From positions 28,322-92,321 of the forward strand of contig JAWCMS010000002.1 of assembly GCA_038849525.1 (NCBI GenBank): 64,000 nucleotides of DNA, written 5' to 3'. Source of the stretch: Candidatus Pacearchaeota archaeon (lineage in GTDB: Archaea; Nanobdellota; Nanobdellia; Pacearchaeales; JAHJTO01). The notes under the pieces are model-generated. The model searched no databases. It was not told the origin of the DNA and saw only the letters and a program-made list of their open reading frames with translations. Position numbers and translations under genes: made by a program. Each line of letters opens with the position of its first letter. Position 1 is the stretch's first letter. Shown piece after piece: positions 7,063 to 60,317 of this stretch.

Positions 7063-7165
7063 CGCCCGGACCGAGATTTGAACTCGGGTCGGAACCGATC
7101 TGTTCAGCAATTTCTTCCGAAATTGGTTGACAGGGTTCTATGCTAGGCCGCTACACCATCCGGGC
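7063..7165 (-). tRNA. tRNA-Asp (anticodon GUC) with a ~30-nt intron at position 37/38
   Basis: Manual fold: acceptor GCCCGGA/TCCGGGC. Anticodon stem GAACC/GGTTC with loop CUGUCA interrupted by ~30 nt. T-arm CCGAG-TTCAAAT-CTCGG. Discriminator G. It is a GC-rich island in AT-rich DNA. Confidence 0.7.
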
Positions 7166-7239
7166 TTATTATATCAATAATAATTGATAATATTTTTAAA
7201 ACTTTTTAAATTTAAACCTTTAATCTAAAAATTTAATAA

Positions 7240-7944
7240 ATGATGAAAATAGCATTTATATTGCCTGTTTATAATGAAGAAAAAGATTTGAAAAAAGGTG
7301 TTTTAAAACTCTATAATTATTTAGTCTCGAATAAAATAAAATCATGGAAGATAATTATTGCAGATAATGCATCAACAGATAAAACTCCTGAGATAGGCAA
7401 ACAACTTGCAAAAAATTATACTAATGTATTTTATTTTTATTTGCCTATTAAAGGAAGAGGGTATGCTTTAAGAAAAACATATAATTCATTCAATGCAAAA
7501 ATTTATTTTTATATGGATATTGACCTCTCAACTGATTTAAACCATATAAAAGAAGTGCTGAACGAAATGAATTATAATGATATTGTAATTGGAACAAGGC
7601 TTTCGAAAAACTCAAAAGTTGAAAGAAGTTTGTTTAGAGAATTAATTTCTAGAACATACAATTTGATTGCAAGATTTTTAACAAAAACTAAAGTTTCTGA
7701 TCTTCAATGCGGATTTAAAGCCATAAATAATAAAATTATCGAAGAAGTAATTCCTTTGGTTAAGGATAATAATTGGTTTTTTGATTCTGAAATGTTGATA
7801 ATAGCAGAAAAAAGAGGATATAAGATTAAAGAAATTCCTATAAAATGGACTGATGATCCTTATTCTAAGGTTAAAATATTAGAAACTTCTTTAAATTATC
7901 TAAAAAATTTGTTACGTCTTAGAAATTTTATAACAAAGATGTAG
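7240..7944 (+). CDS. Family-2 glycosyltransferase (dolichyl-phosphate sugar transferase-like)
   Basis: IAFILPVYNEE...IIIADNASTDKT and a D.D-type motif (YMDIDLS) typical of GT2/DPM1-like enzymes. Confidence 0.75.
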   Translation: MMKIAFILPVYNEEKDLKKGVLKLYNYLVSNKIKSWKIIIADNASTDKTPEIGKQLAKNYTNVFYFYLPIKGRGYALRKTYNSFNAKIYFYMDIDLSTDLNHIKEVLNEMNYNDIVIGTRLSKNSKVERSLFRELISRTYNLIARFLTKTKVSDLQCGFKAINNKIIEEVIPLVKDNNWFFDSEMLIIAEKRGYKIKEIPIKWTDDPYSKVKILETSLNYLKNLLRLRNFITKM

Positions 7945-8677
7945 TATTAAACTTATTGAAAATTGAATATATCTTTTTTAGTGAATCCTTTGTATGATTT
8001 TTAACTTCAGACAAACAATTCGATTTTGGATACATTATATCCCCCGACTTGTTTACATGATTAAATCCTAAAACATGCAATAATTCATGCAAACCTGAAG
8101 AAGCTTCATTACTACACTGATACTCATAAAGAAATATAACCCCTTTTGTTATTATATTATATCCATTTATCGGATAGTGCTGTACAGGGCCCCCTTCTCC
8201 AAGAATTTTCCAGTGTCTTTCTGTTTCAGGCGCTTCTGAAGAAGAACTACAATAAATTAGTATATCCGCATTTTCATTTCCAATTTCTTCATTAAATTTA
8301 ATTAGATTGTCTGAATATTTTTCAACTATACTGAATGCGTCTTTCATTACTTTTTTTCTTGCGTCATCACATCCTCCAAGATAAGAATATTTCAGATTAT
8401 TAGAATACCAAATCGGATAAGAAAAAAGAGTCGGGGATTCTATATAACCAATTGTTTGCTCTGGAGGGAAGTCTAAAGGATTAACATGCATTTCTTTCTT
8501 TTCTTTACTGACAAACTCATTAGATATTTCTTTAGATGAATAATTGGATAATCCTAAAATCTCTATATGATCTTTTATTTTTGCTTTATTTTCTTCATGT
8601 TGGAGAACACAATTATTGATGCCTGCAACTAAAAACAATAAAACAATTATCAATATAACCAAAAAATCTCTTTTCAT
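7928..8677 (-). CDS. Secreted or membrane-anchored zinc metalloprotease (metzincin-like)
   Basis: N-terminal hydrophobic segment. Extended zinc-binding motif HELLHVLGFNH (HExxHxxGxxH). Confidence 0.6.
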   Translation of the reverse strand: MKRDFLVILIIVLLFLVAGINNCVLQHEENKAKIKDHIEILGLSNYSSKEISNEFVSKEKKEMHVNPLDFPPEQTIGYIESPTLFSYPIWYSNNLKYSYLGGCDDARKKVMKDAFSIVEKYSDNLIKFNEEIGNENADILIYCSSSSEAPETERHWKILGEGGPVQHYPINGYNIITKGVIFLYEYQCSNEASSGLHELLHVLGFNHVNKSGDIMYPKSNCLSEVKNHTKDSLKKIYSIFNKFNTTSLL

Positions 8678-8683
8678 ATTTTA

Positions 8684-8817
8684 TCCCGGCGGGCGGACTC
8701 GAACCGCCAACCACTCGGTTTCTTTTTTGGCTGCCTATGAATCATCTTTTTCCCGAAGGAATATCTTCATAGCGCAATAAGCTACAGCCAAGTGCTCCAC
8801 CGTTGAGCTACGCCGGG
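8684..8817 (-). tRNA. tRNA-Tyr (anticodon GUA) with a long (~59 nt) intron
   Basis: Manual fold: acceptor CCCGGCG/CGCCGGG with the archaeal Tyr identity pair C1-G72. D-arm GCTC-AACGGTG-GAGC. Anticodon stem CUUGG/CCGAG with loop CUGUAG then the intron. T-arm GGCGG-TTCGAGT-CCGCC. Discriminator A. Confidence 0.6.
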
Positions 8818-8904: not shown

Positions 8905-10302
8905 TTATTTAATTACCGTAGATCCTATAGGTGACTGCTCTGGAACAATTATAGAAAGAGAATTTGATTTTGCTTCATGTAAATTCCCTTTAGTATCTTT
9001 GTAAGTAACAAAAGTTAATGGAATAGACAATGTACCTATTATTGTAAGTTTGCTGTATACTATATAAGAGAGCATTATCTCTTCATTTTGCCCTAATCTA
9101 TCGATATGCCATATTAATGTTTTCTTTCTTATTTCTGTAGGAGAAAGGGTACCAAACTTTTCAGGTACAAGTTCAGTAAAAGCAGGTAGCCTATCAATAA
9201 TTTTTAAATCAGTCACTTCTTTTCCTTTGTTTTTTATCGCAAGAACTATTTTTGTAGCGAATACCCCTGATTTTGTTTTAACATTGACTGCTTTTTTGTT
9301 TATTTTTACTTGTGGGGTCATTATATAAATAAAAATCCATGTTGCGATAATAAGTAAAATTAATATTAAAAAGGGTAGGTAATAAGATGTTCTTGCTTCA
9401 ACAGTAAGCTTTTCTCCTGGATTCAGCTCTTTTGTAAATTCATAAATTACACTGTTTCCTTCTCTTTTAATGTTTGTTGGTTTGATATTAAAGTTTGTAA
9501 ACATTCCAGCAATAATTGATTTTTTTAAAGAAATTGTAATATCTGTTACACTATTGCCAGTGTTTTCTTTTGTTACAGTTGTTTTATAGTTTAAAAAATA
9601 ACCAGATTCTTCTGTTGTTTCTTCTACTGAAATTATCGATTTTAGCGTTATATCTTTAATTATTTTAAAATCATAATCGTCTATAGTAAATGTCGCTTTT
9701 ATTTCATATGTTCCTGCTTTTGGTAACGTACTTTTAAGCGGAACATTTAAAACAATTCCATTTTTAGTTAGTGTTACTTGTTTTGTATAGCTTAAAAGCT
9801 CAGAAACAAGAGTAAGCTCTGCATCAAGAATTGTATCTTTAGTCAAATTTATAGTTACATTAATTTCTTTTTCGTCACTTGAAATTGTTGTAGGCATTTC
9901 TAACTCAATTAAATCAGATAGAGAAATAAAATCAAGCATCATAGTACTTTTTTTAATTTCTTTTTCACCTTTTATATAATATAAAAATGAAAAACTACCA
10001 CTCTGATTAGCTCTTATCTCTTGGCTTGGATAAATTTCTCTTCTAACAGTTTTTTCACTGTTTCCTGCTACAAACACTGCATCTTTTGGAGTTATATTTA
10101 TATCAAGTAATGTGTCTATCAAGAAAATATCTGAATTTCGATTATTGTTTATAATAGTAATATCAAAAGTTGCTGGTAATGAAAGCTCTTTTATTATTAT
10201 ATTGTTTATAGCAGTTTCTTTAAGCTCTACATCTGCATTTGCAAAAGGGAATATCAGAAGAAATATTGCTACGATAATAATTATTAAACCTTCTTTTTTC
10301 AT
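8905..10302 (-). CDS. Surface/membrane protein: signal peptide, Ser/Thr/Ile-rich beta-rich ectodomain, TM helix, cytoplasmic tail
   Basis: N-terminal hydrophobic signal; TM at ...YLPFLILILLIIATWIFIYIM...; repetitive beta-strand-like composition. No catalytic motif recognised. Confidence 0.35.
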   Translation of the reverse strand: MKKEGLIIIIVAIFLLIFPFANADVELKETAINNIIIKELSLPATFDITIINNNRNSDIFLIDTLLDINITPKDAVFVAGNSEKTVRREIYPSQEIRANQSGSFSFLYYIKGEKEIKKSTMMLDFISLSDLIELEMPTTISSDEKEINVTINLTKDTILDAELTLVSELLSYTKQVTLTKNGIVLNVPLKSTLPKAGTYEIKATFTIDDYDFKIIKDITLKSIISVEETTEESGYFLNYKTTVTKENTGNSVTDITISLKKSIIAGMFTNFNIKPTNIKREGNSVIYEFTKELNPGEKLTVEARTSYYLPFLILILLIIATWIFIYIMTPQVKINKKAVNVKTKSGVFATKIVLAIKNKGKEVTDLKIIDRLPAFTELVPEKFGTLSPTEIRKKTLIWHIDRLGQNEEIMLSYIVYSKLTIIGTLSIPLTFVTYKDTKGNLHEAKSNSLSIIVPEQSPIGSTVIK

Positions 10303-10342: not shown

Positions 10343-10843
10343 TTATTTCTTGGCTTCTAAAACAAGAAATGCCTTTAGCTGTTCTGTCATTTCGTTCATT
10401 TCTTCAACTAATTTGTCTTCATAATCTGAGATTCTTCCTCTTATTATATAATTATCATATAACCCTCTTAAGAATTTCAGGAATGCAGTTGCTTCCCATC
10501 TATTTTCATAGTCTTTTTCAAGATATGCTGAAAATTTTATTTCCAAAGAACCTTTATTTGTCTTAACTTTTATACCTTCTTTTATAACTTCAACATCATT
10601 CATACCTAGGATTAACCAATGCATTTTTATTATAAATCTAAAATAATCACTTATCTTTCTCTTGGCAACCCATTCTATTTCTATTTCTTTACCTTTAGTA
10701 GAATTTTTTTCAGAATAAACTCGTTCTTCTACTTCATACTCTAAATCAGTCGCTAGAGTAAAAAGAAACCTATATGTATCTTTAAAATCGAAAATACCAT
10801 CGTGCTTGATTTTAGATTCTGCTATTTTATCTTTTTCAGCCAT
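10343..10843 (-). CDS. Hypothetical protein
   Basis: Long ORF with coding-like composition; no recognisable motif. Confidence 0.3.
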   Translation of the reverse strand: MAEKDKIAESKIKHDGIFDFKDTYRFLFTLATDLEYEVEERVYSEKNSTKGKEIEIEWVAKRKISDYFRFIIKMHWLILGMNDVEVIKEGIKVKTNKGSLEIKFSAYLEKDYENRWEATAFLKFLRGLYDNYIIRGRISDYEDKLVEEMNEMTEQLKAFLVLEAKK

Positions 10844-10942: not shown

Positions 10943-11509
10943 TCAAAAAAACCGATCTTCACATTCTTCGCATATAAGTCTTCTATCTATATCATAGAGC
11001 AATCCATATGTGCCACATTCTTCGCATTCTCCTTCTTTTGTCCAAGACCTTCCTTCTTTTCCTTCCGATATCCTTTTTAATTTTTCTGTTTCTTCTTTTA
11101 TTTGCATATTTCCCACAGCGATTTCAAATAAACTAGGCTCTATTCTTAAAATATCTTTGATTGTAAGAATACCTATAACATTTCCTTTGACAGTAACAGG
11201 GAGCCAGCGTAATTTTTTATTTCTCATTCTCACAAGAGCTTCATAAATATCACGGGAGGGTTTTATAGTTGTTATTTTTCTAAGCATTATATCTTTTACT
11301 TTGACATTATGTAAATCTTGTTTTTTTGTTAGTGCCCAAATAATATCTTTTTCAGTTATGATACCTTTTAATTTTCTATTATCTTTTACTATCAATAGGC
11401 CTATATCTTTCTTAACCATGCATTTTGCACATTCTGTTATCGTAGCTGTAGGCTTGACACTTATAACATTTCTTGTCATTATATCTCCAACTTTAATCCC
11501 AATTTGCAT
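10943..11509 (-). CDS. CBS-pair domain protein with C-terminal CxxC...CxxC zinc ribbon (paralog A)
   Basis: Two CBS motifs (VGDIMTRNVISV..., VKDIMLRKITTI...). C-terminal ECEECG...CEECED. About 60% identical to the ORF at 14773-15363. Confidence 0.7.
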   Translation of the reverse strand: MQIGIKVGDIMTRNVISVKPTATITECAKCMVKKDIGLLIVKDNRKLKGIITEKDIIWALTKKQDLHNVKVKDIMLRKITTIKPSRDIYEALVRMRNKKLRWLPVTVKGNVIGILTIKDILRIEPSLFEIAVGNMQIKEETEKLKRISEGKEGRSWTKEGECEECGTYGLLYDIDRRLICEECEDRFF

Positions 11510-11665
11510 TTTTTCTCCTATAATGTGCTAAATAGAAAATTATATAAATAACTATCTTATATAAAGCATATAAAGTATATGCCTGCTAGGCTAAGGAAGT
11601 GTTTAGGTATATATTTTATTGAAGTATTATATTTAACACTGTAAGATAGTAAAAAGATTAATAAA

Positions 11666-12622
11666 ATGGTTAAAAGTGAACCGAGAAAATTGATAAAATT
11701 TGGAAATTCCTCTTATATAGTTAGCCTTCCAAAGAAATGGATAGAGAAAAACAACTTGAAAAAAGGAGATATTATCTACCTCGAAGACAACAACGATAGT
11801 CTTACTCTTAATCTTAAAGACAAAAGAAAGCCTGACAGCAAGAAAATTGTAATCTCTATGAACAATAAAGATTCTGATGAATTAAAAAGAGAGTTTACAT
11901 CAGCATATATAAATAACTATTCTGAAATTATTATTGAAGGAAAAAATGAAAGAAAGAGAGATGAGTTAATAAACAAAATTGTGCAGGAGAAAATAGGCGT
12001 AGAGATCGTAGAGCAAAATGCCGAGCAAATAGTGATAAAAGATATTCTTGACCTTGAAGCCATTTCTTTTGAGAAAATCACAAGAAGGCTTGACAATGTT
12101 GTCAGGTCAATGTTTGATGAATTAATAACTGCATTGAAAAGTGGAAATTTGAAGGAGTGGAATATAAAAGAAATCCAGCGTGCAGATTATGAAGTAAACA
12201 AACTGTATTTTCTTGTGTGGAAACTTGTAAGAAAATGTCAAGATGAGCGCACAGCACTGAGCAGCATGAAACTCAGTTCAAAGGACCTTTCAGATATACA
12301 ATGGATATCTTTACACCTTGAATACATAGGTGATGATTTGAAGAGGCTTGCGAGAAACCTCGCTGTTCTAAAGATAGATGCTGAAACTATTAAGAAAATA
12401 CTTTTGATGATACAGACTCTTGAAAAGAAATATATTACTGTAATGAATGCCTATTACTCTCTTGACAAACTGTCAGCAAGAAAAATAGCTTCATCAAAAT
12501 ATGAATTTCAAAAAAATTGTGATGCTCTTTACTTAAACCATCCTTCAGTAAGCATATCAATCGAAAAACTCAAAGGAATATCAAGCTCAATACACAACAT
12601 TTCAAAAATAATAGCATACTAA
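11666..12622 (+). CDS. AbrB/SpoVT-like swapped-hairpin domain fused to a PhoU-like helical domain (archaeal phosphate-uptake-regulator-like)
   Basis: N-terminus KLIKFGNSSYIVSLPKKWIEKNNLKKGD matches the AbrB/MazE looped-hinge helix fold. The C-terminal helical repeats resemble PhoU. A paralog lies at 56168-57106. Confidence 0.55.
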   Translation: MVKSEPRKLIKFGNSSYIVSLPKKWIEKNNLKKGDIIYLEDNNDSLTLNLKDKRKPDSKKIVISMNNKDSDELKREFTSAYINNYSEIIIEGKNERKRDELINKIVQEKIGVEIVEQNAEQIVIKDILDLEAISFEKITRRLDNVVRSMFDELITALKSGNLKEWNIKEIQRADYEVNKLYFLVWKLVRKCQDERTALSSMKLSSKDLSDIQWISLHLEYIGDDLKRLARNLAVLKIDAETIKKILLMIQTLEKKYITVMNAYYSLDKLSARKIASSKYEFQKNCDALYLNHPSVSISIEKLKGISSSIHNISKIIAY

Positions 12623-12623
12623 A

Positions 12624-13613
12624 ATGAAACCAACAAAAATACTTGTAAATGGAGTAGAAGAAGAAATAAACAAATTTTTAGAGATTGACAATGGGAATCA
12701 TCTTGAAAAAATAACAGAATACTGGAATCAGGGTTCAAGATCTGTAACTGAAATGTATAGACATCCAAAAAAAGATGAAGTTTATATGATAAAGCAGTAT
12801 GTTTCTACAAAATATGATGAATTTATTACAGAAAAAGCCATCCTCAAAGTTGCAAATAAGTATATCGAAGGACTTTTCCCGAAAATATTTGCATATGAGA
12901 GCAGTGTTCTTCATGAAAACAGAATACTTCTTTGCGAAGGAATAAAGTCAGATACTTTAGAACAAAAAATAGAGAAATCTGATAAAATAACCTTTTCACA
13001 AATTGCGTTAGCAATAAAACCTATAACTATTCTTCACACACAACTCAGCCAATATGCAAAAGAAATAGAAGATGAAATGAGAGTCCTTTCGAAAGGCAAG
13101 TTGTACAGAATATATGAGTTAAGCAAATATAATTGTCTAAAAAATATAGTGACACAGTTCAAAAATGCTGATAAATGGACATATAAACTGATAAGTTCCC
13201 TTCTTGAAGAATATGTATTTAGAGATGAATACAATGTCCTTGCACCACATGATGGATTTCCAAGGCAAAATCTTATAACGAGGCTTGTTGACGCAGGAAA
13301 TATCTATTGGACTTCATGTCTTATACATCTTGGCTGTACTATAGGACTCCCAATAGTGCAGAATAAATTTGAAAATCCTCACGAAGAAATGAAAAGTTGT
13401 GTTAATTTTTATCTTCAAAATACAAGGATTAAGGCCGATACAAATCACTTCCTGACAGGATTATATCTTGCATCAGTCTATGCAAACATGAGGATGATTA
13501 ACTTTAACAGGAGGATTGGAGAAAAAACAGATGAGTACAAATCATGCGCTGTAAAGCATGCTAGATATGTGTCAATGCCATTGGCAGAAAAAATAGCCGG
13601 AGACCTGAAATGA
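12624..13613 (+). CDS. Divergent protein-kinase-like (PKL) fold protein
   Basis: VYMIKQY (candidate beta3 Lys), then PHDGFPRQNLI (HxDxxxxN catalytic-loop-like), then LVDAGN (DFG-like). Starts 2 nt after the upstream gene ends. Confidence 0.4.
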   Translation: MKPTKILVNGVEEEINKFLEIDNGNHLEKITEYWNQGSRSVTEMYRHPKKDEVYMIKQYVSTKYDEFITEKAILKVANKYIEGLFPKIFAYESSVLHENRILLCEGIKSDTLEQKIEKSDKITFSQIALAIKPITILHTQLSQYAKEIEDEMRVLSKGKLYRIYELSKYNCLKNIVTQFKNADKWTYKLISSLLEEYVFRDEYNVLAPHDGFPRQNLITRLVDAGNIYWTSCLIHLGCTIGLPIVQNKFENPHEEMKSCVNFYLQNTRIKADTNHFLTGLYLASVYANMRMINFNRRIGEKTDEYKSCAVKHARYVSMPLAEKIAGDLK

Positions 13614-14776
13614 CATCCATCCTAGAGAGATATACTACAAACAAAGAAATGCTTACCCAAGATTTACAGCGACTACTACAACTTTCAGTACTTCGGGAAA
13701 GAAAAGAAACTCTTGAGCTTAAAATAGAATCTATGGAGATGCAGAAAGGGCACAGAAATAAATTCTTGAGAATTCTGACTCACCAATATTTTCACAATAC
13801 ACAAAAAAGAGATTTTGTAGTATATTTTTTGAAGGAGCATTACAATGAGGAAAGTTTTGAAAATGAGAGAAAAATACTTGAATTCACAAACAATTTTTCG
13901 TTCAAATATGATGAGTGGACATTTATGACTCCTCCAAAAGGGACACCTACACAAGGAATGTCAAAAAGAATATTTCCAAAATTAATTAACACAGAGAGAT
14001 ACAATGATAGTAATGCAGACAGTTTCTACAACAATAAAATTCTTATCCTTCAAGGGATAGATCCCGAGAGAAATCTCAAAGAGATAGTGTCAGGAAAAAA
14101 AGACATCTATTGGCTGGATATAACCGGAGCATCTGATCCGATAGTTTTGCTGCAGGATTTTTTGTTTTATCAGAAAGGAATAACAAAAGAGGCTATCGGA
14201 GAATTTAATTTGAAGAATTTCAAGGAAAAATTCTCTTCAAGGATGGAATATGCACAGTTTGAGAAAGTTATATACTCTGATGATGGTCTTTCAATAAACT
14301 TGGTAGAGCTTTTGGACAAATATCTAAATAAAAATGATACTCTTATCCATAGGACTTATCCTGAACATAATCTTATTAATGGACTAGTTGATGCGAATAT
14401 TGAATTCGGACCGAGAGCAATTCCATTAGGAAGCTTGTATGGAGATTATCATGTTTTCAAAAGTATGTCTGAGCCTGAAAAAAGTGTTTCAAACCTTATA
14501 GACAATATCATAGAAAAACGAAAGAATATGGTTGAAGAAGCTATCTTAAAGGGAATGATTCCTGCTGATGCAAGAAATATCCAGATTGATAAAAATTATC
14601 TTGAAATGGGATTTTATCTAAGAAGTATATACCATAATCTTGGTTATTTCTTGAACCAAAATATTGATAATACTATCCTGCTTAGAGAGTGCATAAACTA
14701 CCAAATAGACATTCTTGCCTGCAAAGAGTTTGAGAACATACGAAGAACAGCTAATAAAGCAAAAAATAACTTCTAA
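13610..14776 (+). CDS. Paralog of the upstream PKL protein, probably catalytically degenerate
   Basis: TYPEHNLINGLVDANI aligns to PHDGFPRQNLITRLVDAGNI of the neighbour, but the catalytic Asp is replaced by Asn. It overlaps the upstream gene by 4 nt. Confidence 0.35.
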   Translation: MTSILERYTTNKEMLTQDLQRLLQLSVLRERKETLELKIESMEMQKGHRNKFLRILTHQYFHNTQKRDFVVYFLKEHYNEESFENERKILEFTNNFSFKYDEWTFMTPPKGTPTQGMSKRIFPKLINTERYNDSNADSFYNNKILILQGIDPERNLKEIVSGKKDIYWLDITGASDPIVLLQDFLFYQKGITKEAIGEFNLKNFKEKFSSRMEYAQFEKVIYSDDGLSINLVELLDKYLNKNDTLIHRTYPEHNLINGLVDANIEFGPRAIPLGSLYGDYHVFKSMSEPEKSVSNLIDNIIEKRKNMVEEAILKGMIPADARNIQIDKNYLEMGFYLRSIYHNLGYFLNQNIDNTILLRECINYQIDILACKEFENIRRTANKAKNNF

Positions 14777-15363
14777 TCTCTTTCTTCTTCATCCTTGCAC
14801 TCTTCGCATAAAAGACGGCCATCAACATTATACAATAACCCAAATGCCCCGCATTCCTCGCATTCTCCTTCTTTAGCCCATATATCTCCTCTAGCAAGAG
14901 ATTCTCTTCTTTTTCTTAATTTTATCGCTTTATATTTTTCTTCTTCCTCTTTTATGGGAGTAAATTCTCTGACAATCTCAAACAAACTGGGCTCTATTTT
15001 TAGAATATCCTTTACAGTCAGCATGCCAATTACTCTAGATTTTACTATAACTGGTAACCACCTTATTTTTTTACCCTTCATTTTTTTCAATGCTTCATAC
15101 ATATCTTCACTTGGTGAAATAGTGATAACATGTCTTGTCATAATATCCTTTGCTTTAATCTTCGATAAGTTTTTAGATTTTGCAATTGCTCTTATTATGT
15201 CTCCTTCTGTTAATATTCCTTCTAATTTTTGGTCTGTTTTTACTATAAGAGAACCAACCTTGTTTGAAATCATTATTTTAGAGCATTCAGATATAGATGT
15301 GTCAGGCGTAACAGAAATAAAATTTCTAGTCATTACATCGCCAACTTTTATGCCTATTTTCAT
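14773..15363 (-). CDS. CBS-pair domain protein with C-terminal zinc ribbon (paralog B)
   Basis: Same architecture as 10943-11509 and about 60% identical to it (MKIGIKVGDVMTRNFISV...EGECEECGAFGLLY...CEEC). Confidence 0.7.
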   Translation of the reverse strand: MKIGIKVGDVMTRNFISVTPDTSISECSKIMISNKVGSLIVKTDQKLEGILTEGDIIRAIAKSKNLSKIKAKDIMTRHVITISPSEDMYEALKKMKGKKIRWLPVIVKSRVIGMLTVKDILKIEPSLFEIVREFTPIKEEEEKYKAIKLRKRRESLARGDIWAKEGECEECGAFGLLYNVDGRLLCEECKDEEERD

Positions 15364-15457: not shown

Positions 15458-16129
15458 ATGATAAAGGCAATCCTCTTTGATTTAGATAATACTTTAGTGG
15501 ACTTTATGGCGATGAAGAAGAAAAGCTGCGAAGCTGCTATTGATGCAATGATTGCTTCTGGATTAGAGATTAAGAGAGATGAAGCATTAAAGATCCTTTT
15601 CGAATTATATGACAAATATGGAATAGAATATCAGCAGATTTTTCAAAAATTTCTTGAGAAGACGAAAGGGAAAGTTGATTATAAGATTCTTGCAAATGGA
15701 GTTATTGCTTATAGAAAAATAAGAGAGTTTTATCTTTCTCCCTATCCAAGAGTAATTCCAACATTAATTGAATTAAAGAAAAAATACACTCTTGCAATCA
15801 TAACAGATGCTCCAAGGCTTCAGGCATGGTTGAGATTGGTTTCCATGAAGATTGATTCTTTTTTTGACATTGTAATAACAGCAGCCGATGTAAGGAAGAA
15901 AAAAATAACTGCTGCACCTTTCAAAGCTGCATTGAAAGAATTAAAGATAAAGCCCGAAGAAGCAATGATGGTTGGAGATTGGATTGATAGAGATATTAAG
16001 ACAGCAAAGTCTTTGGGAATAAAAACATGTTATGCGCGTTATGGAGATGAAAAGCCGGCTCCTCTAGGACAAAGCGGAGCTGATTATGAGATTGAAGATA
16101 TAAAAGATTTGATAAAAATAATCTTTTAG
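15458..16129 (+). CDS. HAD-superfamily hydrolase (phosphatase-like)
   Basis: Motif I ILFDLDNTLVDF; later ...ITDAP... and ...MVGDW.DRDI... (HAD motifs III and IV). Confidence 0.7.
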   Translation: MIKAILFDLDNTLVDFMAMKKKSCEAAIDAMIASGLEIKRDEALKILFELYDKYGIEYQQIFQKFLEKTKGKVDYKILANGVIAYRKIREFYLSPYPRVIPTLIELKKKYTLAIITDAPRLQAWLRLVSMKIDSFFDIVITAADVRKKKITAAPFKAALKELKIKPEEAMMVGDWIDRDIKTAKSLGIKTCYARYGDEKPAPLGQSGADYEIEDIKDLIKIIF

Positions 16130-56167: not shown

Positions 56168-57106
56168 ATGAAACGTAAAATAATCAAGTTAGGCACGGCA
56201 ACTTTAGTAACCAGCTTGCCTGCAAAATGGATTAAGGAATTTGGATTAAAACAGGGCGACTATATTGATGTTGAAGAAATGAAAAGTAACCTTATCTTAT
56301 CAACAGAAAAAGAAATCGCTAAGGCAGAAAAGAAAATTGATCTTAAAGGAGTTAACACAAAGCTTGCATCTTATTATATCGAAGCGGCATACTGCATTGG
56401 CTATGATAGGATAGAGATTCTACATGAGCCTTATATTACAGAGTATAAAACGAACAGAAAGATATCAACATCAGAATTTATACAAAAAGAGGCAAATAGC
56501 TTTATAGGGATAGAAATTATTGAGCAATCCCCTGAAAAAACTGTTCTGAAAGATCTCGGTAAAGTGTCTGATACAGAGGCTGACAATATCTTAAGAAGGT
56601 GTTTTTTGCTTACAAAGGACATGTTCAATGAATGCTTTAATGCAATAAAAAATAAGAACAAGGAAGTTTTAAAAGAAATGGATAGCAGAGGTAACAATGT
56701 CCAGAGATTTATATATTATTATAAAAGAATATTGAATAAAAAAGGATACAAGGATTTTAACAAAACTGCTGTAATGTACCATAACATCGAAATTCTTGCG
56801 GATATTGTCGGTATAACAAAATACATTGCGAAAGAAAGCCTACTCTTCAGAAAAGATTACACTGAAAAAGCACTGAAAGTTTTTTCAATGACTACAGATT
56901 CAATAAACAAACTCGATTCTCTTTTCTTTACATTTTCAAAGGAAAAGTCAATGGAGATAATAAAAGAAAGGGCGCAGATATGGGAACTCATGAATACTGA
57001 AAAAAATAAGTCAACAGCGGAAGATGCTTATCTCTATTCTAAGTTAGCAATGATAGTTATGAATGTTTCTTATCTCGCTATTGGAAGGTTTTACTTAGAA
57101 TTATAA
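56168..57106 (+). CDS. AbrB/SpoVT-PhoU-like regulator (paralog of 11666-12622)
   Basis: KIIKLGTATLVTSLPAKWIKEFGLKQGDYI (AbrB-like). Conserved mid-domain GIEIIEQSPEKTVLKDL versus GVEIVEQNAEQIVIKDI in the paralog. Confidence 0.55.
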   Translation: MKRKIIKLGTATLVTSLPAKWIKEFGLKQGDYIDVEEMKSNLILSTEKEIAKAEKKIDLKGVNTKLASYYIEAAYCIGYDRIEILHEPYITEYKTNRKISTSEFIQKEANSFIGIEIIEQSPEKTVLKDLGKVSDTEADNILRRCFLLTKDMFNECFNAIKNKNKEVLKEMDSRGNNVQRFIYYYKRILNKKGYKDFNKTAVMYHNIEILADIVGITKYIAKESLLFRKDYTEKALKVFSMTTDSINKLDSLFFTFSKEKSMEIIKERAQIWELMNTEKNKSTAEDAYLYSKLAMIVMNVSYLAIGRFYLEL

Positions 57107-57898
57107 GGCGCAACAAGTACCAAAAATTTCATCTTTAGAACAATTTTCCCAAACTATCCATTCAGCATTTATAGGTTTTTTATCACAACAAACTTTAATG
57201 TTTACTTTATAATCAGAAGTTGGTACATAGATATCATCAATTTTTTTCATGACGCTTAAACGGATATTCTCATCTATCTCGCAATCCGAAAAATCAATAT
57301 AATAAGTGTTAGTTTCATCCTGAATAAAAGTTCCTTTGCAATTATCATCCAAAAAATTTCCTTCTTTATCTACTCTTACAATTTCATATTCTTCTGTAAG
57401 TTCCTTATTAGTTTCAAGTGCAATAATACAATTCCAAGCTAGACTACTAAGGTATACTTCAAGGAATGAGATTATTAGACCTAAAAAGAAAATGCTTATT
57501 GCCACAAAAAATAAAATTTTGTCAGTTTTTGTTGGTTTATTTTTTTGCACTAAAAAAAGTACAAATATTAAAAAAAGTATAGGTAATATTTCAGCGTGAT
57601 GGTTCATTCCAAATGAAGGAATTTTAAATATTAATGATGAGAGAAATATAATTAATGTAGCTATCATAGCAGCAAGATTTTTTCTTTTTATAAGAAAAGC
57701 AAGAATTAAAAATGCTAAACCTTCTATGGCCGTTCCGTAACCTATGCCAATTTTAAGTAAATGAGTTATATTGCCTAATTTAGCCCAAATGCTGATAGCA
57801 ATTGAGAGTATAACTCTGATGATAATTATCCAAAATGTCAAAATTAGAAATAAATTCGAGATGTTTTGCTTATCAAATTTTTTCATTTTCATCTTCAA
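57101..57898 (-). CDS. Membrane protein with C-terminal extracytoplasmic Cys-rich domain
   Basis: Five predicted TM helices, then a domain with 9 Cys (CIIAL..., DNCKG, SDCEID, VCCDKK, ENCSKD, GTCCAL). Confidence 0.35.
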   Translation of the reverse strand: MKMKMKKFDKQNISNLFLILTFWIIIIRVILSIAISIWAKLGNITHLLKIGIGYGTAIEGLAFLILAFLIKRKNLAAMIATLIIFLSSLIFKIPSFGMNHHAEILPILFLIFVLFLVQKNKPTKTDKILFFVAISIFFLGLIISFLEVYLSSLAWNCIIALETNKELTEEYEIVRVDKEGNFLDDNCKGTFIQDETNTYYIDFSDCEIDENIRLSVMKKIDDIYVPTSDYKVNIKVCCDKKPINAEWIVWENCSKDEIFGTCCAL

Positions 57899-58649
57899 AA
57901 ATTATTTTAAGAAGCTCTGATGGTTCATTTATTTTATAAGAAATGTCTTTTAATTGTGACAAATCTTTATTTGCATATCTGAATGCAACCGTCTTATATT
58001 TTAATTTATGTGCTCCTACAAGCTCATCAGTATCATGACCGATAAAAATAACTTCATCTTTCTTTAGCCCGTGTTTTTTCAAAGCAGTTTCGAAAAATTT
58101 TGCATCCGGCTTACATACATGAACATCTTTTGAGGATATAATATCTGAAATTTCTGAACCGTATCCTATTTTTTTCAGCGATTCCTGAAGTTCATAGCCG
58201 TGCTTTGTCGCATCTGTAAGAACTATTATTTTGATTCCTTCCCTTGCGATCTGTTCAAGAACTTCTTTCACTCCAGGAATAACTTTTGGAGATTTTTTAT
58301 TTTGGTTGATATAATTCATTAAATCATTATAGTATTTTTCAATCATTAATTCCTTAAGGGTATCTTTATATGCATCCTTTCTTTCATAACCTTCAATTGT
58401 CTGAGCCTTGGTTTTATATTTATTATATATTTTCTTAAATTTTTCTTCATTAATGTTGCTAAAAGAAGATGTTTCTTTTGGAATTTCATCTTCTTTATCT
58501 GCTATAAAATTTTTACTTTTAAGATAATCAAATAATTCATTTTTCTGTTTACTATCTTCAAACAAAATGTTCCCGCCATCTATAAGTAGTGCTTTTATTT
58601 TATTTGTCATTTTTCTTTTTTTCATGTTTCTTAGAAACTTCCTTTGCAA
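57873..58649 (-). CDS. HAD-superfamily hydrolase
   Basis: LIDGGNILF (degenerate motif I), ...IVLTDATKHG..., ...VCKPDAKFF..., ...IGHDTDELVGA (motifs II-IV). Confidence 0.55.
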   Translation of the reverse strand: MQRKFLRNMKKRKMTNKIKALLIDGGNILFEDSKQKNELFDYLKSKNFIADKEDEIPKETSSFSNINEEKFKKIYNKYKTKAQTIEGYERKDAYKDTLKELMIEKYYNDLMNYINQNKKSPKVIPGVKEVLEQIAREGIKIIVLTDATKHGYELQESLKKIGYGSEISDIISSKDVHVCKPDAKFFETALKKHGLKKDEVIFIGHDTDELVGAHKLKYKTVAFRYANKDLSQLKDISYKINEPSELLKIIFEDENEKI

Positions 58650-59214
58650 TTATGCCTTCTAATTCTTTCTGATCTGTCTTAACCTTGTCAAAAAGATAGC
58701 TAAAGTCATTTAGTGTAATGTCACGCTCCTTGTTTATTATTTGTTTCATCTCACTCAAAGGCATATTTTCTCTATAAAGATGAGTTTTACCATATACTTT
58801 TAAAGTTTCTAGAAAGTTATCCTTTATTTTATTATAGTGAGTCGTTCCAGGTTTAATTGAATCATAAATTAGAGGGTTAATTGAATTAATGATTTCGTTG
58901 CTTTCTTGTATTTTTTCATTCGTATCTTCTATGGTGTTAACAATATCTCTTCTAAGAATAATTCCTTCAAATAAACTATTTTTTTGAGCAAGAGGCTTTA
59001 CTTTTATAGAGTATATTCCTATATAGCTTCCAAGTATAATTGCAGCTATAGAAGCGATAGTTACTACCTTCTTCTTTAAAGAATTATAATAATTTTTAAT
59101 TTCCTTTATTTCCTTTGATTTTTTGGCCATAGCTTCTATTATTGTCTTATCTATTACTTTAATGTCTTCTTGGTAAATCGCATTTACGTCCTTGATTTGG
59201 TTTTCAGTTTTCAT
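58600..59214 (-). CDS. Membrane-anchored hypothetical protein
   Basis: Single TM (VVTIASIAAIILGSYIGIY) with coiled-coil flanks. Confidence 0.3.
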   Translation of the reverse strand: MKTENQIKDVNAIYQEDIKVIDKTIIEAMAKKSKEIKEIKNYYNSLKKKVVTIASIAAIILGSYIGIYSIKVKPLAQKNSLFEGIILRRDIVNTIEDTNEKIQESNEIINSINPLIYDSIKPGTTHYNKIKDNFLETLKVYGKTHLYRENMPLSEMKQIINKERDITLNDFSYLFDKVKTDQKELEGIIAKEVSKKHEKKKNDK

Positions 59215-60317
59215 ATTTTTATCTCCTTGATTTTCGCATAATTTTTTACATTTGTCAGAAGATCCTCTTTTGCATGCTCTGCTTTTCTGGCAGCGACTTC
59301 AAATATTTTTGGATCATATTTGTTTTTAGCCAAAAATTTCTTGTCATTCATCACTTCTCTATATTCTTTAGCTTTTTTCTCTGCAAATCCAGCTAATTTT
59401 ATGTATTCATGAATTCTTGCTAATGAATAAATTTCTTTGAATTTTTCGAAATTTTGGTTTATACTTAATTTTGAGTATAACATTTCAATAGCCTTATTTT
59501 CCTTTTCAGCATTATTTTCCCAGCCAAATGAAAAGATGATTCTCGCCAAGTCTGTTTGTGGTACACCATACATCGCTCTTGACCAGTCTATAATCCATAA
59601 GTCTCCATTTTTCTTCAAGATTATATTGCTAAAATGAAGATCCCCATGAGTCAAACCACTTCTATTGGCATTAAGTTTATCTGAAATATTCTTATAATCA
59701 AATTTTTGGGTAAAGCCAAATGATTCATATTCCTTCCAGTAGTCTGATTTTTCAATTAGTTTTTTGATCCTCTTGTTTAAAGGAATAGAGTGATACGCCA
59801 CAATGTTGTCTATTATTTTTTCAAGGGTGTTTTCTTTTTCCTCATAGCTCATTTGGAATACTTTCTTTGCCAAATCAATATCTTCTTTATCCAAAAGTTC
59901 GAAGGCAATAAATTCAGAATTATTGTAAATATTTGATAATACAATTTTATTATTTAGTTGTTCTCCAAGATAATCAGAAATAACCTTTTCTTTCTCTATC
60001 TCGTGCTTTTCAGCATTTTTCCCAAAACATATAAACTCTGTTCCGTTTGGAAATCCCATTTTAACATAAACGCAATCAGGATGGCCACTTTTTTTATTTG
60101 CACTTGATATAAATTCATCTGTTCTGATAAAATCATTGAGTTTATTGTATTCTGATTTCGTAAGCTCTCCATTTTTCAATTTTTCCTTTATGCCATATTC
60201 GATTAATTCAGCGATAAACTTATCAATACCTGAACTAACGAACTGATTAAGGCATTCATTATCATAATTTTCTTCCATTTTAACTTTCTTCATATATTTC
60301 TTATATACGCTTAACAT
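59211..60317 (-). CDS. Aminoglycoside-phosphotransferase/choline-kinase-like (APH-family) small-molecule kinase
   Basis: Catalytic loop LTHGDLHFSNIIL and metal-binding IIDWSRA (HGDxxxxN...IDWE pattern). Confidence 0.7.
   Translation of the reverse strand: MLSVYKKYMKKVKMEENYDNECLNQFVSSGIDKFIAELIEYGIKEKLKNGELTKSEYNKLNDFIRTDEFISSANKKSGHPDCVYVKMGFPNGTEFICFGKNAEKHEIEKEKVISDYLGEQLNNKIVLSNIYNNSEFIAFELLDKEDIDLAKKVFQMSYEEKENTLEKIIDNIVAYHSIPLNKRIKKLIEKSDYWKEYESFGFTQKFDYKNISDKLNANRSGLTHGDLHFSNIILKKNGDLWIIDWSRAMYGVPQTDLARIIFSFGWENNAEKENKAIEMLYSKLSINQNFEKFKEIYSLARIHEYIKLAGFAEKKAKEYREVMNDKKFLAKNKYDPKIFEVAARKAEHAKEDLLTNVKNYAKIKEIKI

Follow-up and report, generated by a model that had tools for sequence, protein, structure and literature searches.

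What do the genes at this locus of a Candidatus Pacearchaeota archaeon do, and do they work together? In the window (the whole 64-kb stretch of DNA that was analysed), three plus-strand genes lie in the order AP1, A, B between two minus-strand genes for CBS-domain proteins, CBS1 and CBS2 (Table 1). A preliminary description, made from the DNA letters, had placed the open reading frames it names where they are found. It also called the three genes tightly coupled, and their junctions agree: a spacer of 1 nt divides AP1 from A, A and B overlap in an ATGA, and the stop codons of B and CBS2 converge with an overlap of 4 nt. The arrangement is kept in at least seven lineages. Pfam, NCBIfam, PADLOC, PHROGs and the literature yield no match to it, in keeping with the original view that it belongs to no described system.

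The reading favoured here, at a probability of roughly 0.55, is that the locus carries a lineage-specific cassette in which AP1, one or two APH-fold kinases and an extra CBS protein would make up a regulated heteromeric kinase.

Table 1. Features of the cassette and its neighbourhood (positions in the window).
Feature	Positions	Strand	Description
M465	8905..10302	-	Predicted membrane/surface protein, 465 aa; gene 3 of the CBS1 unit; neighbour
S166	10343..10843	-	Conserved orphan protein, 166 aa; gene 2 of the CBS1 unit; neighbour of the cassette, non-member
CBS1	10943..11509	-	CBS pair and 4-Cys ribbon, 188 aa; divergent from AP1; gene 1 of the CBS1 unit
CBS1 ribbon	10961..11026	-	Zinc-ribbon-like CxxC-x16-CxxC, C162-C183; read from sequence
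CBS1/AP1 promoter region	11530..11619	.	Conserved core; TATA-box-like elements on both strands and GGCTAAGGAA motif
AP1	11666..12622	+	AbrB/SpoVT-PhoU fusion regulator, 318 aa; operon gene 1
A	12624..13613	+	APH-fold kinase-like protein, 329 aa; full catalytic set K57, E70, D210, N216, D223
A catalytic loop	13248..13292	+	Catalytic loop to DxG segment, H209-D223, 'HDGFPRQNLITRLVD'
B	13610..14776	+	APH-fold paralog, 388 aa; catalytic Asp replaced by R248; K75, E86, N254, D261 kept
B loop segment	14348..14392	+	Degenerate catalytic-loop segment, H247-D261, 'HRTYPEHNLINGLVD'
CBS2	14773..15363	-	CBS pair and 4-Cys ribbon, 196 aa; convergent with B
CBS2 ribbon	14797..14862	-	Zinc-ribbon-like CxxC-x16-CxxC, C168-C189; read from sequence

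The first gene of the block had been described as an AbrB/SpoVT-PhoU fusion, and both Pfam domains indeed score above their gathering cut-offs. These are MazE_antitoxin/SpoVT-AbrB (PF04014) at 36.7 bits (E 4e-9, cut-off 24.7) and PhoU (PF01895) at 29.2 bits (E 1.2e-6, cut-off 23.5). AP1 consists of an N-terminal swapped-hairpin SpoVT/AbrB domain, which resembles MazE-type antitoxin domains as a fold class only, and a C-terminal PhoU domain. An AbrB signature, 'RKLI..GNSS..LPK.W..K.GLKKGD', is common to 17 AP1 orthologs. The PhoU-type motifs 'RR.DN.IR.MF', 'EI..AD...NK' and 'LE.IGD..K.IA' are likewise kept across the 17, and identity between lineages is 46-66%. The region between AP1 and CBS1 has a promoter core of about 70 nt that is conserved in six lineages. 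Within the window, the exact GGCTAAGGAA is unique to this region, which also holds two overlapping CATATAAAGTATATAC-like copies. The conserved core is circumstantial support for a putative role of AP1 in DNA-bound regulation of transcription.

The other two genes are mutual paralogs, as had been proposed, with 23% identity (E=7e-8). A single family HMM scores A at 5e-91 and B at 1e-73 and has no other match in the window. The family comprises 78 clusters among 1.84 billion representatives, and it is found only in Pacearchaeota/Woesearchaeota-type genomes. Pfam searches with A, B and all 54 members returned no match, PF01636 included; NCBIfam and a sequence search of the PDB likewise gave none for any of the 54. 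The fold is bilobal and protein-kinase-like, with APH/ChoK-type structures nearest; the predicted model of A has low confidence at the catalytic loop itself. RIO, Bud32, HipA and CotH were rejected as the nearest family, the closest similarity being to APH/ChoK-type proteins. Among the top structural neighbours, many are kinases that inactivate drugs (corramycin, amicoumacin, viomycin, macrolide and aminoglycoside phosphotransferases), and the best structural matches of B are MTR kinases.

The kinase likeness of the two proteins, for which a profile comparison had been suggested as a check, is found through an intermediate subgroup of divergent single kinases. These align with the A/B family at an hhalign probability of 97% (E 8.7e-11) and with the Pfam APH protein of the window at 89% (E 2.1e-6), with HGD, N and ID in register. 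Along this profile chain, the canonical APH motif of the single-kinase subgroup, HGDLxxxN...ID, falls in register with the A/B family motif, [QH]xDGYPx[HN]N...L[IV]DxG. A direct hhalign comparison of the A/B family with the window's APH protein is not significant. Because the link to PF01636 runs solely via the intermediate subgroup, this is a new family inside the superfamily and outside PF01636 as now defined. Within the APH/choline-kinase-like phosphotransferases, A and B represent a new branch that evolves very fast.

The catalytic loop of A reads P-H-D210-GFPR-Q215-N216 ... D223. It keeps the HxD...N...D pattern first noticed there, and the Lys, Glu, catalytic Asp, Asn and DxG Asp are all present. 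A has the Brenner motif (HxDxxxxN with a downstream metal-binding Asp); B lacks it, R248 replacing the Asp. An Asp-to-Asn change originally reported for B stems from a misalignment. When A 'HDGFPRQNLITRLVDAGN' is set opposite B 'HRTYPEHNLINGLVDA-N', D210 of A faces R248 of B, and the Asn in question is the conserved N254, the counterpart of N216. The ATP-anchoring Lys K57 occurs in 47 of 54 family members and its partner Glu E70 in 40 of 54. Their equivalents in B, the beta3 Lys and helix C Glu, are K75 and E86, all such positions being assigned from alignment and secondary-structure order, not coordinates.

A, with every catalytic residue in place, is presumed to be an ATP-dependent phosphotransferase. 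In B the catalytic base is lost and the ATP/Mg-type Lys, Glu, Asn and DxG Asp are kept, which makes B most likely a non-catalytic, possibly nucleotide-binding partner of A that would act in substrate recognition or regulation. With at least one canonical catalytic residue gone from a kinase-fold protein, B is a probable pseudokinase or regulatory subunit. The proposed pairing of an active enzyme with a pseudoenzyme holds for this genome but is specific to certain lineages. At the catalytic Asp position, five of seven B lineages carry R, Y, K, R or E. The DxG Asp is gone as well in three of these, all of them other than the lineage of this genome. In the other two of the seven, L020 and L022, B keeps both, so the pseudokinase state does not define the A/B pair.

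Each family kinase on an adequately long contig adjoins an AbrB-PhoU-type gene. That gene is AP1, immediately upstream, in all cases except L019, in which the kinase neighbour is a convergent AP2-type gene. Likewise, in 11 reference genomes an overlapping kinase-like ORF lies behind every AP1 gene. A genome holds a single kinase or, from an ancient duplication, both A and B. The two paralogs fall into distinct clades whose sub-lineages mirror each other, and the duplication took place a single time, far back, in the clade of this genome.

A second AbrB-PhoU gene near an APH gene had suggested that such pairs recur. Both genes are real: the AbrB-type paralog at 56168 shows 34% identity over 164 aa, and the gene at 59211 encodes a genuine Pfam APH protein (E 9e-11). 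However, the two are encoded on different strands, with 2.1 kb and three genes between them. A kinase neighbour is present at 2 of 80 AP2-like loci, namely the closest ortholog, which shares synteny, and one other. A recurring theme is not supported beyond the AP1 subfamily, to which the linkage is specific.

No other genes in the neighbourhood evolve as fast as A and B, with 23-43% identity between genomes whose thermosomes are 71-78% identical. The cassette is missing from 6 of about 23 syntenic loci. Its position beside the thermosome gene is constant even between lineages whose thermosomes share 71% identity, a sign of vertical inheritance and not of mobility. As a point against the favoured reading, the fast divergence of A and B and the absence of the cassette from some loci suit an accessory role, or one in conflict, better than they suit a core regulatory circuit.

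The two CBS genes had been estimated to be about 60% identical, and 59% is measured (E=7e-79). Pfam finds two CBS domains in each protein (E 1e-30 and 1e-32) and the cysteine pattern gives the C-terminal CxxC-x16-CxxC ribbon, both as first described; this pattern is kept in every ribbon-bearing ortholog. At the DNA level, the two genes have in common a 90-nt repeat, D1, at 74% identity, inside which the CBS1 ribbon lies. A near-identical 23-nt stretch reported for both genes is found within it, matching at 22 of 23 nt and encoding KEGECEECG. No further copies of this family occur in the 64-kb window. The proteins carry 'G-h-h-T-x-x-D' ribose-binding-type motifs (GIITEKD, GILTIKD; GILTEGD, GMLTVKD), which are putatively ligand-binding, as is usual for CBS domains.

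The bracketing of the block by these two genes is partly coincidental. It is clade-specific, single-kinase genomes having both CBS genes in tandem on one side, and CBS1 belongs to a unit that does not depend on the cassette. An ortholog of CBS1 adjoins S166 in most genomes of the same neighbourhood, cassette-less ones included, and the CBS1/S166/M465 unit stands beside the thermosome gene in genomes without the cassette as well. S166, at 63-64% identity between lineages, has no relative in Pfam or the PDB and is found at 42 loci in Pacearchaeota, Woesearchaeota and Nanoarchaeota genomes. M465 lies behind it in most loci (30-42% identity). It has nothing significant in Pfam, and its sequence shows a hydrophobic N-terminus and a hydrophobic stretch mid-protein. 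What stands of the bracketing is CBS2, an orthologous group separate from CBS1 with 64-74% identity between loci, whose presence follows that of the cassette. The extra CBS gene is present in 15 of 17 cassette-bearing lineages, two such loci being without it, and in none of the six cassette-less loci (Fisher p=2.8e-4, phylogeny not corrected for).

These observations can be read in other ways. The cassette may be a conflict-type module, in which an AbrB antitoxin-like autorepressor opposes a kinase toxin, or in which regulated kinases inactivate an antibiotic or toxin of neighbours or hosts; this is unlikely. It would account for the MazE_antitoxin match of AP1 and for a weak match, below the cut-off, to the 'doc_partner' antidote model (E 2.6e-7). 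A regulator-first order of overlapping genes is a trait of type II TA operons, and the pace at which A and B evolve, the patchiness among syntenic genomes and the drug-inactivating structural neighbours are consistent with conflict as well. However, AP1 is large for an antitoxin, retains a PhoU domain and is well conserved, and the chromosomal position by the thermosome gene argues for vertical inheritance. PADLOC gave nothing significant, PHROGs gave no match, and a search for relatives on viral contigs found none. To our knowledge, there is no described APH-fold TA toxin. Neither these searches nor the fixed position place the cassette among type II toxin-antitoxin systems or known anti-phage defences.

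It is decidedly unlikely that plain synteny has merely placed a regulator next to two independent salvage kinases (e.g. methylthioribose-kinase-like), with the CBS proteins, S166 and M465 unrelated and B active through a non-canonical residue. In favour of it, DPANN archaea depend on salvage, and MTR kinases match B best. Here B retains K, E, N and the DxG Asp, and in L020 and L022 it has both Asp. Furthermore, CBS1, S166, M465 and the thermosome gene are conserved without the cassette, and the bracketing is limited to one clade. Yet the extra CBS gene tracks the cassette, which has no genes of methionine salvage or any other pathway next to it. Housekeeping salvage kinases normally diverge less than A and B, at 23-38% against 71-78% for thermosomes. 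Both Asp are gone from B in three lineages, and the mirrored sub-lineages are those expected of co-evolving partners. Protein-kinase signalling has very little probability. By analogy with AMPK, the phosphorylation target of A and B would be AP1 or some other protein, and the CBS protein would be the subunit that senses AMP/ATP, in a new archaeal pathway sensing energy or phosphate. More broadly, AP1, the A/B pair and the CBS protein would form a new archaeal signal-transduction system in genome-reduced DPANN symbionts, again a very improbable proposition. Its kinase, APH-fold and not histidine or Hanks-type, would be gated by the adenylate-sensing CBS subunit and would phosphorylate, or be controlled by, the PhoU-domain transcription factor, so that gene expression would respond to energy or phosphate status. 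Against protein-kinase signalling, the great majority of APH-fold enzymes use small molecules, no phospho-acceptor site was identified, and the kinases diverge rapidly while AP1 stays well conserved.

In the preferred reading, that of a regulated heteromeric kinase, AP1 and one or two kinases of the family would be transcribed together under translational coupling, and the added CBS-pair protein encoded alongside. AP1 probably binds the conserved divergent promoter through its AbrB domain, autoregulating the operon. Input is likely to come by way of the PhoU domain of AP1, which would contact the kinase or sense phosphate, a metal or the product. CBS2 is a probable adenosine-nucleotide-sensing accessory; the phosphate or adenylate sensing first suggested is hypothetical. 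The substrate is most likely a hydroxyl group of a small molecule or peptide, which is the rule for almost all enzymes of the APH fold.

The genomes of DPANN archaea are tiny, and most genes specific to a lineage lack annotation. Here a fold and a probable chemistry (ATP-dependent phosphotransfer) can be assigned to a family absent from curated libraries. Its strict coupling to a single subfamily of archaeal AbrB-PhoU regulators, a widespread class, gives a first concrete, testable handle on what such a regulator controls or contacts. An ancient duplication into one catalytic and one degenerating partner is documented. Its stages form a natural series for the origin of a pseudoenzyme, from a single canonical kinase through an active pair to a kinase and pseudokinase. 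That the kinases diverge fast and the cassette occurs patchily hints at an interaction with a host, a competitor or a xenobiotic which, if true, would be relevant to symbiont biology.

The known systems closest to A and B are the APH/choline-kinase-like phosphotransferases, including aminoglycoside, macrolide and corramycin phosphotransferases, homoserine kinase II, 5-methylthioribose kinase and choline kinase. Unlike these, the A/B family has the altered motif [QH]xDGYPx[HN]N...LxDxG together with LGCLxGxP and GxYxGAxYxN. It is confined to one archaeal lineage, always stands beside an AbrB-PhoU-type regulator and forms an A/B pair in one clade. Maturation kinases paired with a kinase-like non-catalytic partner are known from RiPP pathways, such as TvaC/TvaE of thioviridamide and LxmK-LxmY of class V lanthipeptides. 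The likeness of A/B to these pairs is that of the general APH fold only, and the cassette is without a lyase, cyclase, flavoprotein or precursor-peptide gene.

The two-domain architecture of AP1 is that of archaeal SpoVT/AbrB-PhoU proteins such as TK2245 of T. kodakarensis and the 'PhoU family' transcription factors of P. furiosus. This class is annotated as regulators, and one member has been found associated with the chromosome (PMC7325993; PMC6316755). The AP1 subfamily is set apart by the kinase gene directly downstream. CBS1 and CBS2 resemble the TA0289 family, described as a CBS pair with a Zn-ribbon-like domain (Proudfoot et al. 2008 J Mol Biol 375:301, cited in PMC7521041). The CBS part of PDB 3ghd matches at E 6.6e-8, and the C-terminal 4-Cys ribbon is likened by layout; the difference is that two positional orthogroups exist here, one of them tied to the kinase cassette. 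Finally, as in bacterial PhoU-PhoR/PstB signalling, a PhoU-domain protein is encoded with a kinase and presumed to act on it. In contrast to that system, pst genes are not adjacent, the kinase has an APH fold instead of being a histidine kinase, and PhoU is fused to a DNA-binding domain.

The plus-strand genes between the two CBS-pair paralogs, CBS1 and CBS2, form a compact cassette. It begins with AP1, a regulator gene, and continues with A and B, two kinase-like genes. All five open reading frames are present where the preliminary description placed them, and the tight coupling that it saw is borne out: AP1 and A are 1 nt apart, and A and B overlap in an ATGA. The stop codons of B and CBS2 are convergent and overlap by 4 nt. 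AP1 is indeed an AbrB-PhoU fusion, with a SpoVT/AbrB domain (Pfam MazE_antitoxin) and a PhoU domain both above gathering thresholds. A and B are mutual paralogs, as had been proposed, with weak similarity (23% identity, E 7e-8). The window has a G+C content of about 30%, and the locus tags in the Candidatus Pacearchaeota MAG are QW041_02600 and QW041_02605.

Coordinates of the cassette, its neighbors and related features
Feature	Location	Position	Strand	Description
tRNA	window	7063-7165	-	Rfam, full 71-position model over 103 nt
tRNA	window	8684-8817	-	Rfam, full 71-position model over 134 nt
S166	window	10343-10843	-	166-aa orphan
CBS1	window	10943-11509	-	CBS pair and ribbon
Conserved non-coding core	window	11530-11619		in CBS1/AP1 intergenic region
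AP1	window	11666-12622	+	AbrB-PhoU regulator, 318 aa
A	window	12624-13613	+	kinase-like, 329 aa
B	window	13610-14776	+	kinase-like, 388 aa
CBS2	window	14773-15363	-	CBS pair and ribbon
HAD hydrolase	window	15458-16129	+	between CBS2 and thermosome
AP2/APH-operon layout	window	56168-60317		AP2 and four-gene operon
AP2	window	56168-57106	+	AbrB domain (Pfam); paralog of AP1
APH kinase	window	59211-60317	-	368 aa, Pfam APH
Prismane-domain protein	window	60460-62646	+	728 aa
DNA_alkylation-repair protein	L001	10892-11593		between CBS2 and thermosome
217-aa protein	L012	9073-9726		no assigned family; between CBS2 and thermosome
CBS1 and CBS2 copies	L018	5313-5897, 9196-9783		same strand
179-aa protein	L020	4090-4629		coupled to B end
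Single-copy kinase	L038	2459-3781		A/B family

Neither A nor B has a match in Pfam, NCBIfam, PADLOC or PHROGs. Searches of PDB sequences found nothing for A or B (phmmer) or for a 54-sequence profile of their family, a Pfam domain is found in 0 of the 54 members, and direct hhalign comparison of the family with the APH protein of the window was not significant. With these direct routes negative, the kinase assignment rests on a fold search and on a transitive chain of profiles. The predicted structures settle the fold as kinase-like, and Foldseek concurs (E 2.4e-5, probability 1.0).

The chain of profiles runs through related genomes in which AP1 is followed by a single, very divergent open reading frame (395-495 aa) with a canonical “HGDLxxxN...ID” motif. 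This single-kinase subgroup aligns with the A/B family at an hhalign probability of 97% (E 8.7e-11, 257 columns) and with the APH protein of the window at 89% (E 2.1e-6); in the latter alignment the HGD, N and ID positions line up. By this bridge, D210 of A is the Brenner catalytic Asp, residues 215/216 are the His/Asn-Asn, and D223 is the metal-binding Asp. Among the 54 members, K57 is conserved in 47, E70 in 40, D210 in 41 and D223 in 47.

The family is small and lineage-restricted, since an exhaustive HMMER search with the A+B profile over 1.84 billion cluster representatives found 78 proteins at E<=1e-3. The exhaustive search was required; word-indexed searches recovered only 2-4 relatives, even with the 54-sequence profile. 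The 54-member alignment contains no conserved stretch of 7-10 columns, and S166, the orphan next to CBS1, served as a probe for related loci instead.

The preliminary description saw in A and B an active enzyme paired with a pseudoenzyme. The residues in the window fit this: A has the complete catalytic set (K57, E70, D210, N216, D223), and B keeps K75, E86, N254 and D261 but lacks the catalytic Asp. The substitution had been read as Asp to Asn through a misalignment: the Asn in question is the conserved one, and the catalytic position is occupied by Arg (R248). The loss of the catalytic Asp from B does not extend to every lineage. Both Asp are kept in every A of the seven two-kinase lineages. 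The catalytic position of B is R, Y, K, R or E in five of them, three of which have also lost the DxG Asp, whereas L020 and L022 retain both Asp in B. In a neighbor-joining tree, the A and B proteins form separate clades with mirrored sub-lineages, which indicates one ancient duplication followed by co-evolution and progressive degeneration of B. B would be inactive and would act in a complex with A.

Loss of the catalytic base is not limited to duplicated B copies, since a single-copy member of the family in L038 has Asn for the catalytic Asp (“QHNAYPWHS...LMDSG”). In L020, the B end is coupled to an additional gene, for a 179-aa protein without recognizable relatives.

In metagenome contexts, a recurrent block consists of M465 (a predicted membrane protein of 465 aa), S166 and CBS1 on the minus strand, AP1, A and B on the plus strand, and CBS2 on the minus strand. 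A thermosome gene lies 0.1-3 kb away. Identities to the window proteins are 71-78% for the thermosome, 64-74% for CBS2, 63-64% for S166, 51-66% for CBS1, 46-66% for AP1, 30-42% for M465, 26-38% for A and 23-43% for B. A and B are therefore, together with M465, among the fastest-evolving genes of the block. Between CBS2 and the thermosome, different lineages have different genes, so that this boundary of the block is variable.

The S166 probe yielded 42 loci, in named genomes of Pacearchaeota, Woesearchaeota and Nanoarchaeota, which were annotated with HMMs. Four states can be distinguished. The first, in L022, is a bracket with two kinases like that of the window. In the second (10 loci), the thermosome, a single kinase and AP1 stand divergently to a short, ribbon-less CBS pair of about 140 aa, CBS1, S166 and M465; in 6 of the 10, the kinase has diverged too far to be detected except by profile-profile comparison. 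In the third (6 loci), there is no cassette, and the thermosome lies directly beside one CBS-ribbon gene, S166 and M465. In the fourth, S166 occurs alone in other contexts.

Within this sample, the adjacency of AP1 and kinase holds without exception in both directions. Of the 17 cassette-bearing lineages, 15 also have an extra CBS-pair gene, which none of the 6 cassette-less loci has (Fisher p=2.8e-4, lineages counted without correction for phylogeny). The gene in question is CBS2 where there are two kinases and the short CBS gene where there is one. CBS1 belongs to the CBS1/S166/M465 unit, which also occurs without the cassette, so the CBS1 half of the bracketing emphasized in the preliminary description is coincidental. 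The bracketing itself is specific to the two-kinase clade.

S166 itself has no Pfam or PDB relative and is more conserved than its annotated neighbors. Across its 42 loci, it is often preceded by a CBS-ribbon gene and followed by M465. Two contigs with the archaeal CBS/S166/M465 region, L039 and L053 (the latter also with the thermosome), bear the labels “Candidatus Dojkabacteria bacterium” and “bacterium”, and are probably mis-binned archaeal sequences.

CBS1 and CBS2 are 59% identical (E 7e-79), close to the earlier estimate, and are the only copies of the CBS-ribbon family in the window. In each, two Pfam CBS domains are followed by a CxxC-x16-CxxC ribbon at the C-terminus. The near-identical 23-nt DNA stretch reported for the two is a 22/23-nt match over the KEGECEECG codons, inside a 90-nt stretch of 74% DNA identity. 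Across related loci, the two form separate positional orthogroups, so the duplication is older than these lineages. The exception is L018, whose two copies resemble each other (66% identity) more closely than they do their positional orthologs in other lineages. Judging from the sequences, gene conversion could have occurred between these direct repeats. Recombination between same-strand copies could also remove the cassette so that a single CBS gene remains, as at the cassette-less loci.

Six lineages conserve a core of about 70 nt in the divergent CBS1/AP1 intergenic region, between flanking proteins that share only about 50-65% identity. TATA-box-like elements lie in this core on both strands, along with repeated (C/T)ATATAAAG units and a GGCTAAGGAA motif found nowhere else in the window. 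In L012 and L018, this motif also occurs as an inverted copy (TTTCCTTAGCC) beside the CBS1 start. The core fits a regulated bidirectional promoter. The GGCTAAGGAA element could serve as an operator or, on the CBS1 side, as a Shine-Dalgarno-like element. A sigma-70 promoter and terminator scan gave no enrichment over shuffles; the sigma-70 model does not apply to archaea. For a small RNA in the core, a gathering-level Rfam search of the whole window returned only 4 tRNAs. Two of these, for which the full model is stretched over 103 and 134 nt, probably represent archaeal tRNA genes with introns. Default-mode ARAGORN reported no tRNA in the 7063-8817 region.

The preliminary description also pointed to a second AbrB-PhoU paralog, AP2, near another kinase gene, and proposed a recurring theme. 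The paralogy of AP2 with AP1 is real (34% identity over 164 aa); Pfam sees only the AbrB domain of AP2. The APH gene is genuine too, but it is on the opposite strand, 2.1 kb from AP2. It heads a four-gene minus-strand operon. Its next genes encode a 204-aa protein, a HAD hydrolase of 258 aa and, last, a 265-aa protein, whose gene is convergent with AP2 and overlaps it by 6 nt. The 265-aa protein was considered as a hidden A/B-family member and rejected, as it has no similarity. Among 80 AP2-like loci on metagenome contigs, a kinase neighbor was detectable in only 2 with a single-sequence HMM of limited sensitivity. One is L063, which has the closest AP2 ortholog and the same layout as the window; the other is L019, where an AP2-type gene convergent with a lone A/B-family member forms a second, independent adjacency. 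The general theme thus falls away, and the kinase link is a property of the AP1 subfamily. Beside the operon, the 728-aa protein has an unusual architecture, in which an N-terminal FeThRed_B domain (the ferredoxin-thioredoxin-reductase catalytic chain; E 6e-20) is fused to a hybrid-cluster/prismane domain (E 2e-143).

Archaeal AbrB-PhoU proteins are annotated as regulators; in T. kodakarensis, one of them is associated with the chromosome (PMC7325993, PMC6316755). AP1 keeps the AbrB DNA-binding signature and PhoU-type motifs, including “LE.IGD”, which we take to resemble the E-R-I-G-D core of bacterial PhoU. In the simplest and likeliest model, AP1 would autoregulate an operon for a heteromeric APH-fold phosphotransferase, with A as the catalytic subunit and B as a non-catalytic, possibly ATP-binding partner. 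By analogy with PhoU-PhoR/PstB, the PhoU domain would be a sensory or kinase-contacting module. The cassette-linked CBS protein carries “G-h-h-T-x-x-D” motifs, presumably ligand-binding, and may sense an adenosyl ligand. The likeliest chemistry is phosphorylation of a small-molecule or peptide hydroxyl, as in nearly all enzymes of the APH fold.

A conflict-type function, either toxin-antitoxin-like or in toxin or antibiotic inactivation, is unlikely. The fast divergence of the kinases, their patchy presence, the MazE-type N-terminal domain of AP1 and the overlapping, regulator-first gene order would all suit it. However, there is no PADLOC or PHROGs match, viral relatives were looked for and none found, the chromosomal position is fixed, and the regulator is large and well conserved. 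Somewhat less probable still is plain synteny with independent salvage kinases: the best matches of B are MTR kinases, yet the extra CBS gene co-varies with the cassette, the A and B clades are mirrored, and some B proteins have lost both Asp. A protein-kinase signalling system analogous to AMPK seems the most doubtful of the three. Membership in a RiPP-maturation system (LxmK/TvaE-like) was rejected, as the lyase, cyclase and precursor genes are all missing.

To our knowledge, no AbrB-PhoU protein has been functionally characterized, and the literature searched yielded nothing specific on such an arrangement in DPANN. The cassette offers a solid, testable lead on these archaeal regulators and on pseudoenzyme evolution. 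For the role proposed for B, TvaE is a precedent as an APH-fold partner that is not a kinase. Its fold and the architectures of the regulator and of the CBS-ribbon proteins are already known individually. What is new is a branch of the APH superfamily that is unclassified, lineage-restricted and fast-evolving, its ancient kinase/pseudokinase split, its strict coupling to one AbrB-PhoU subfamily, and the co-varying CBS gene.
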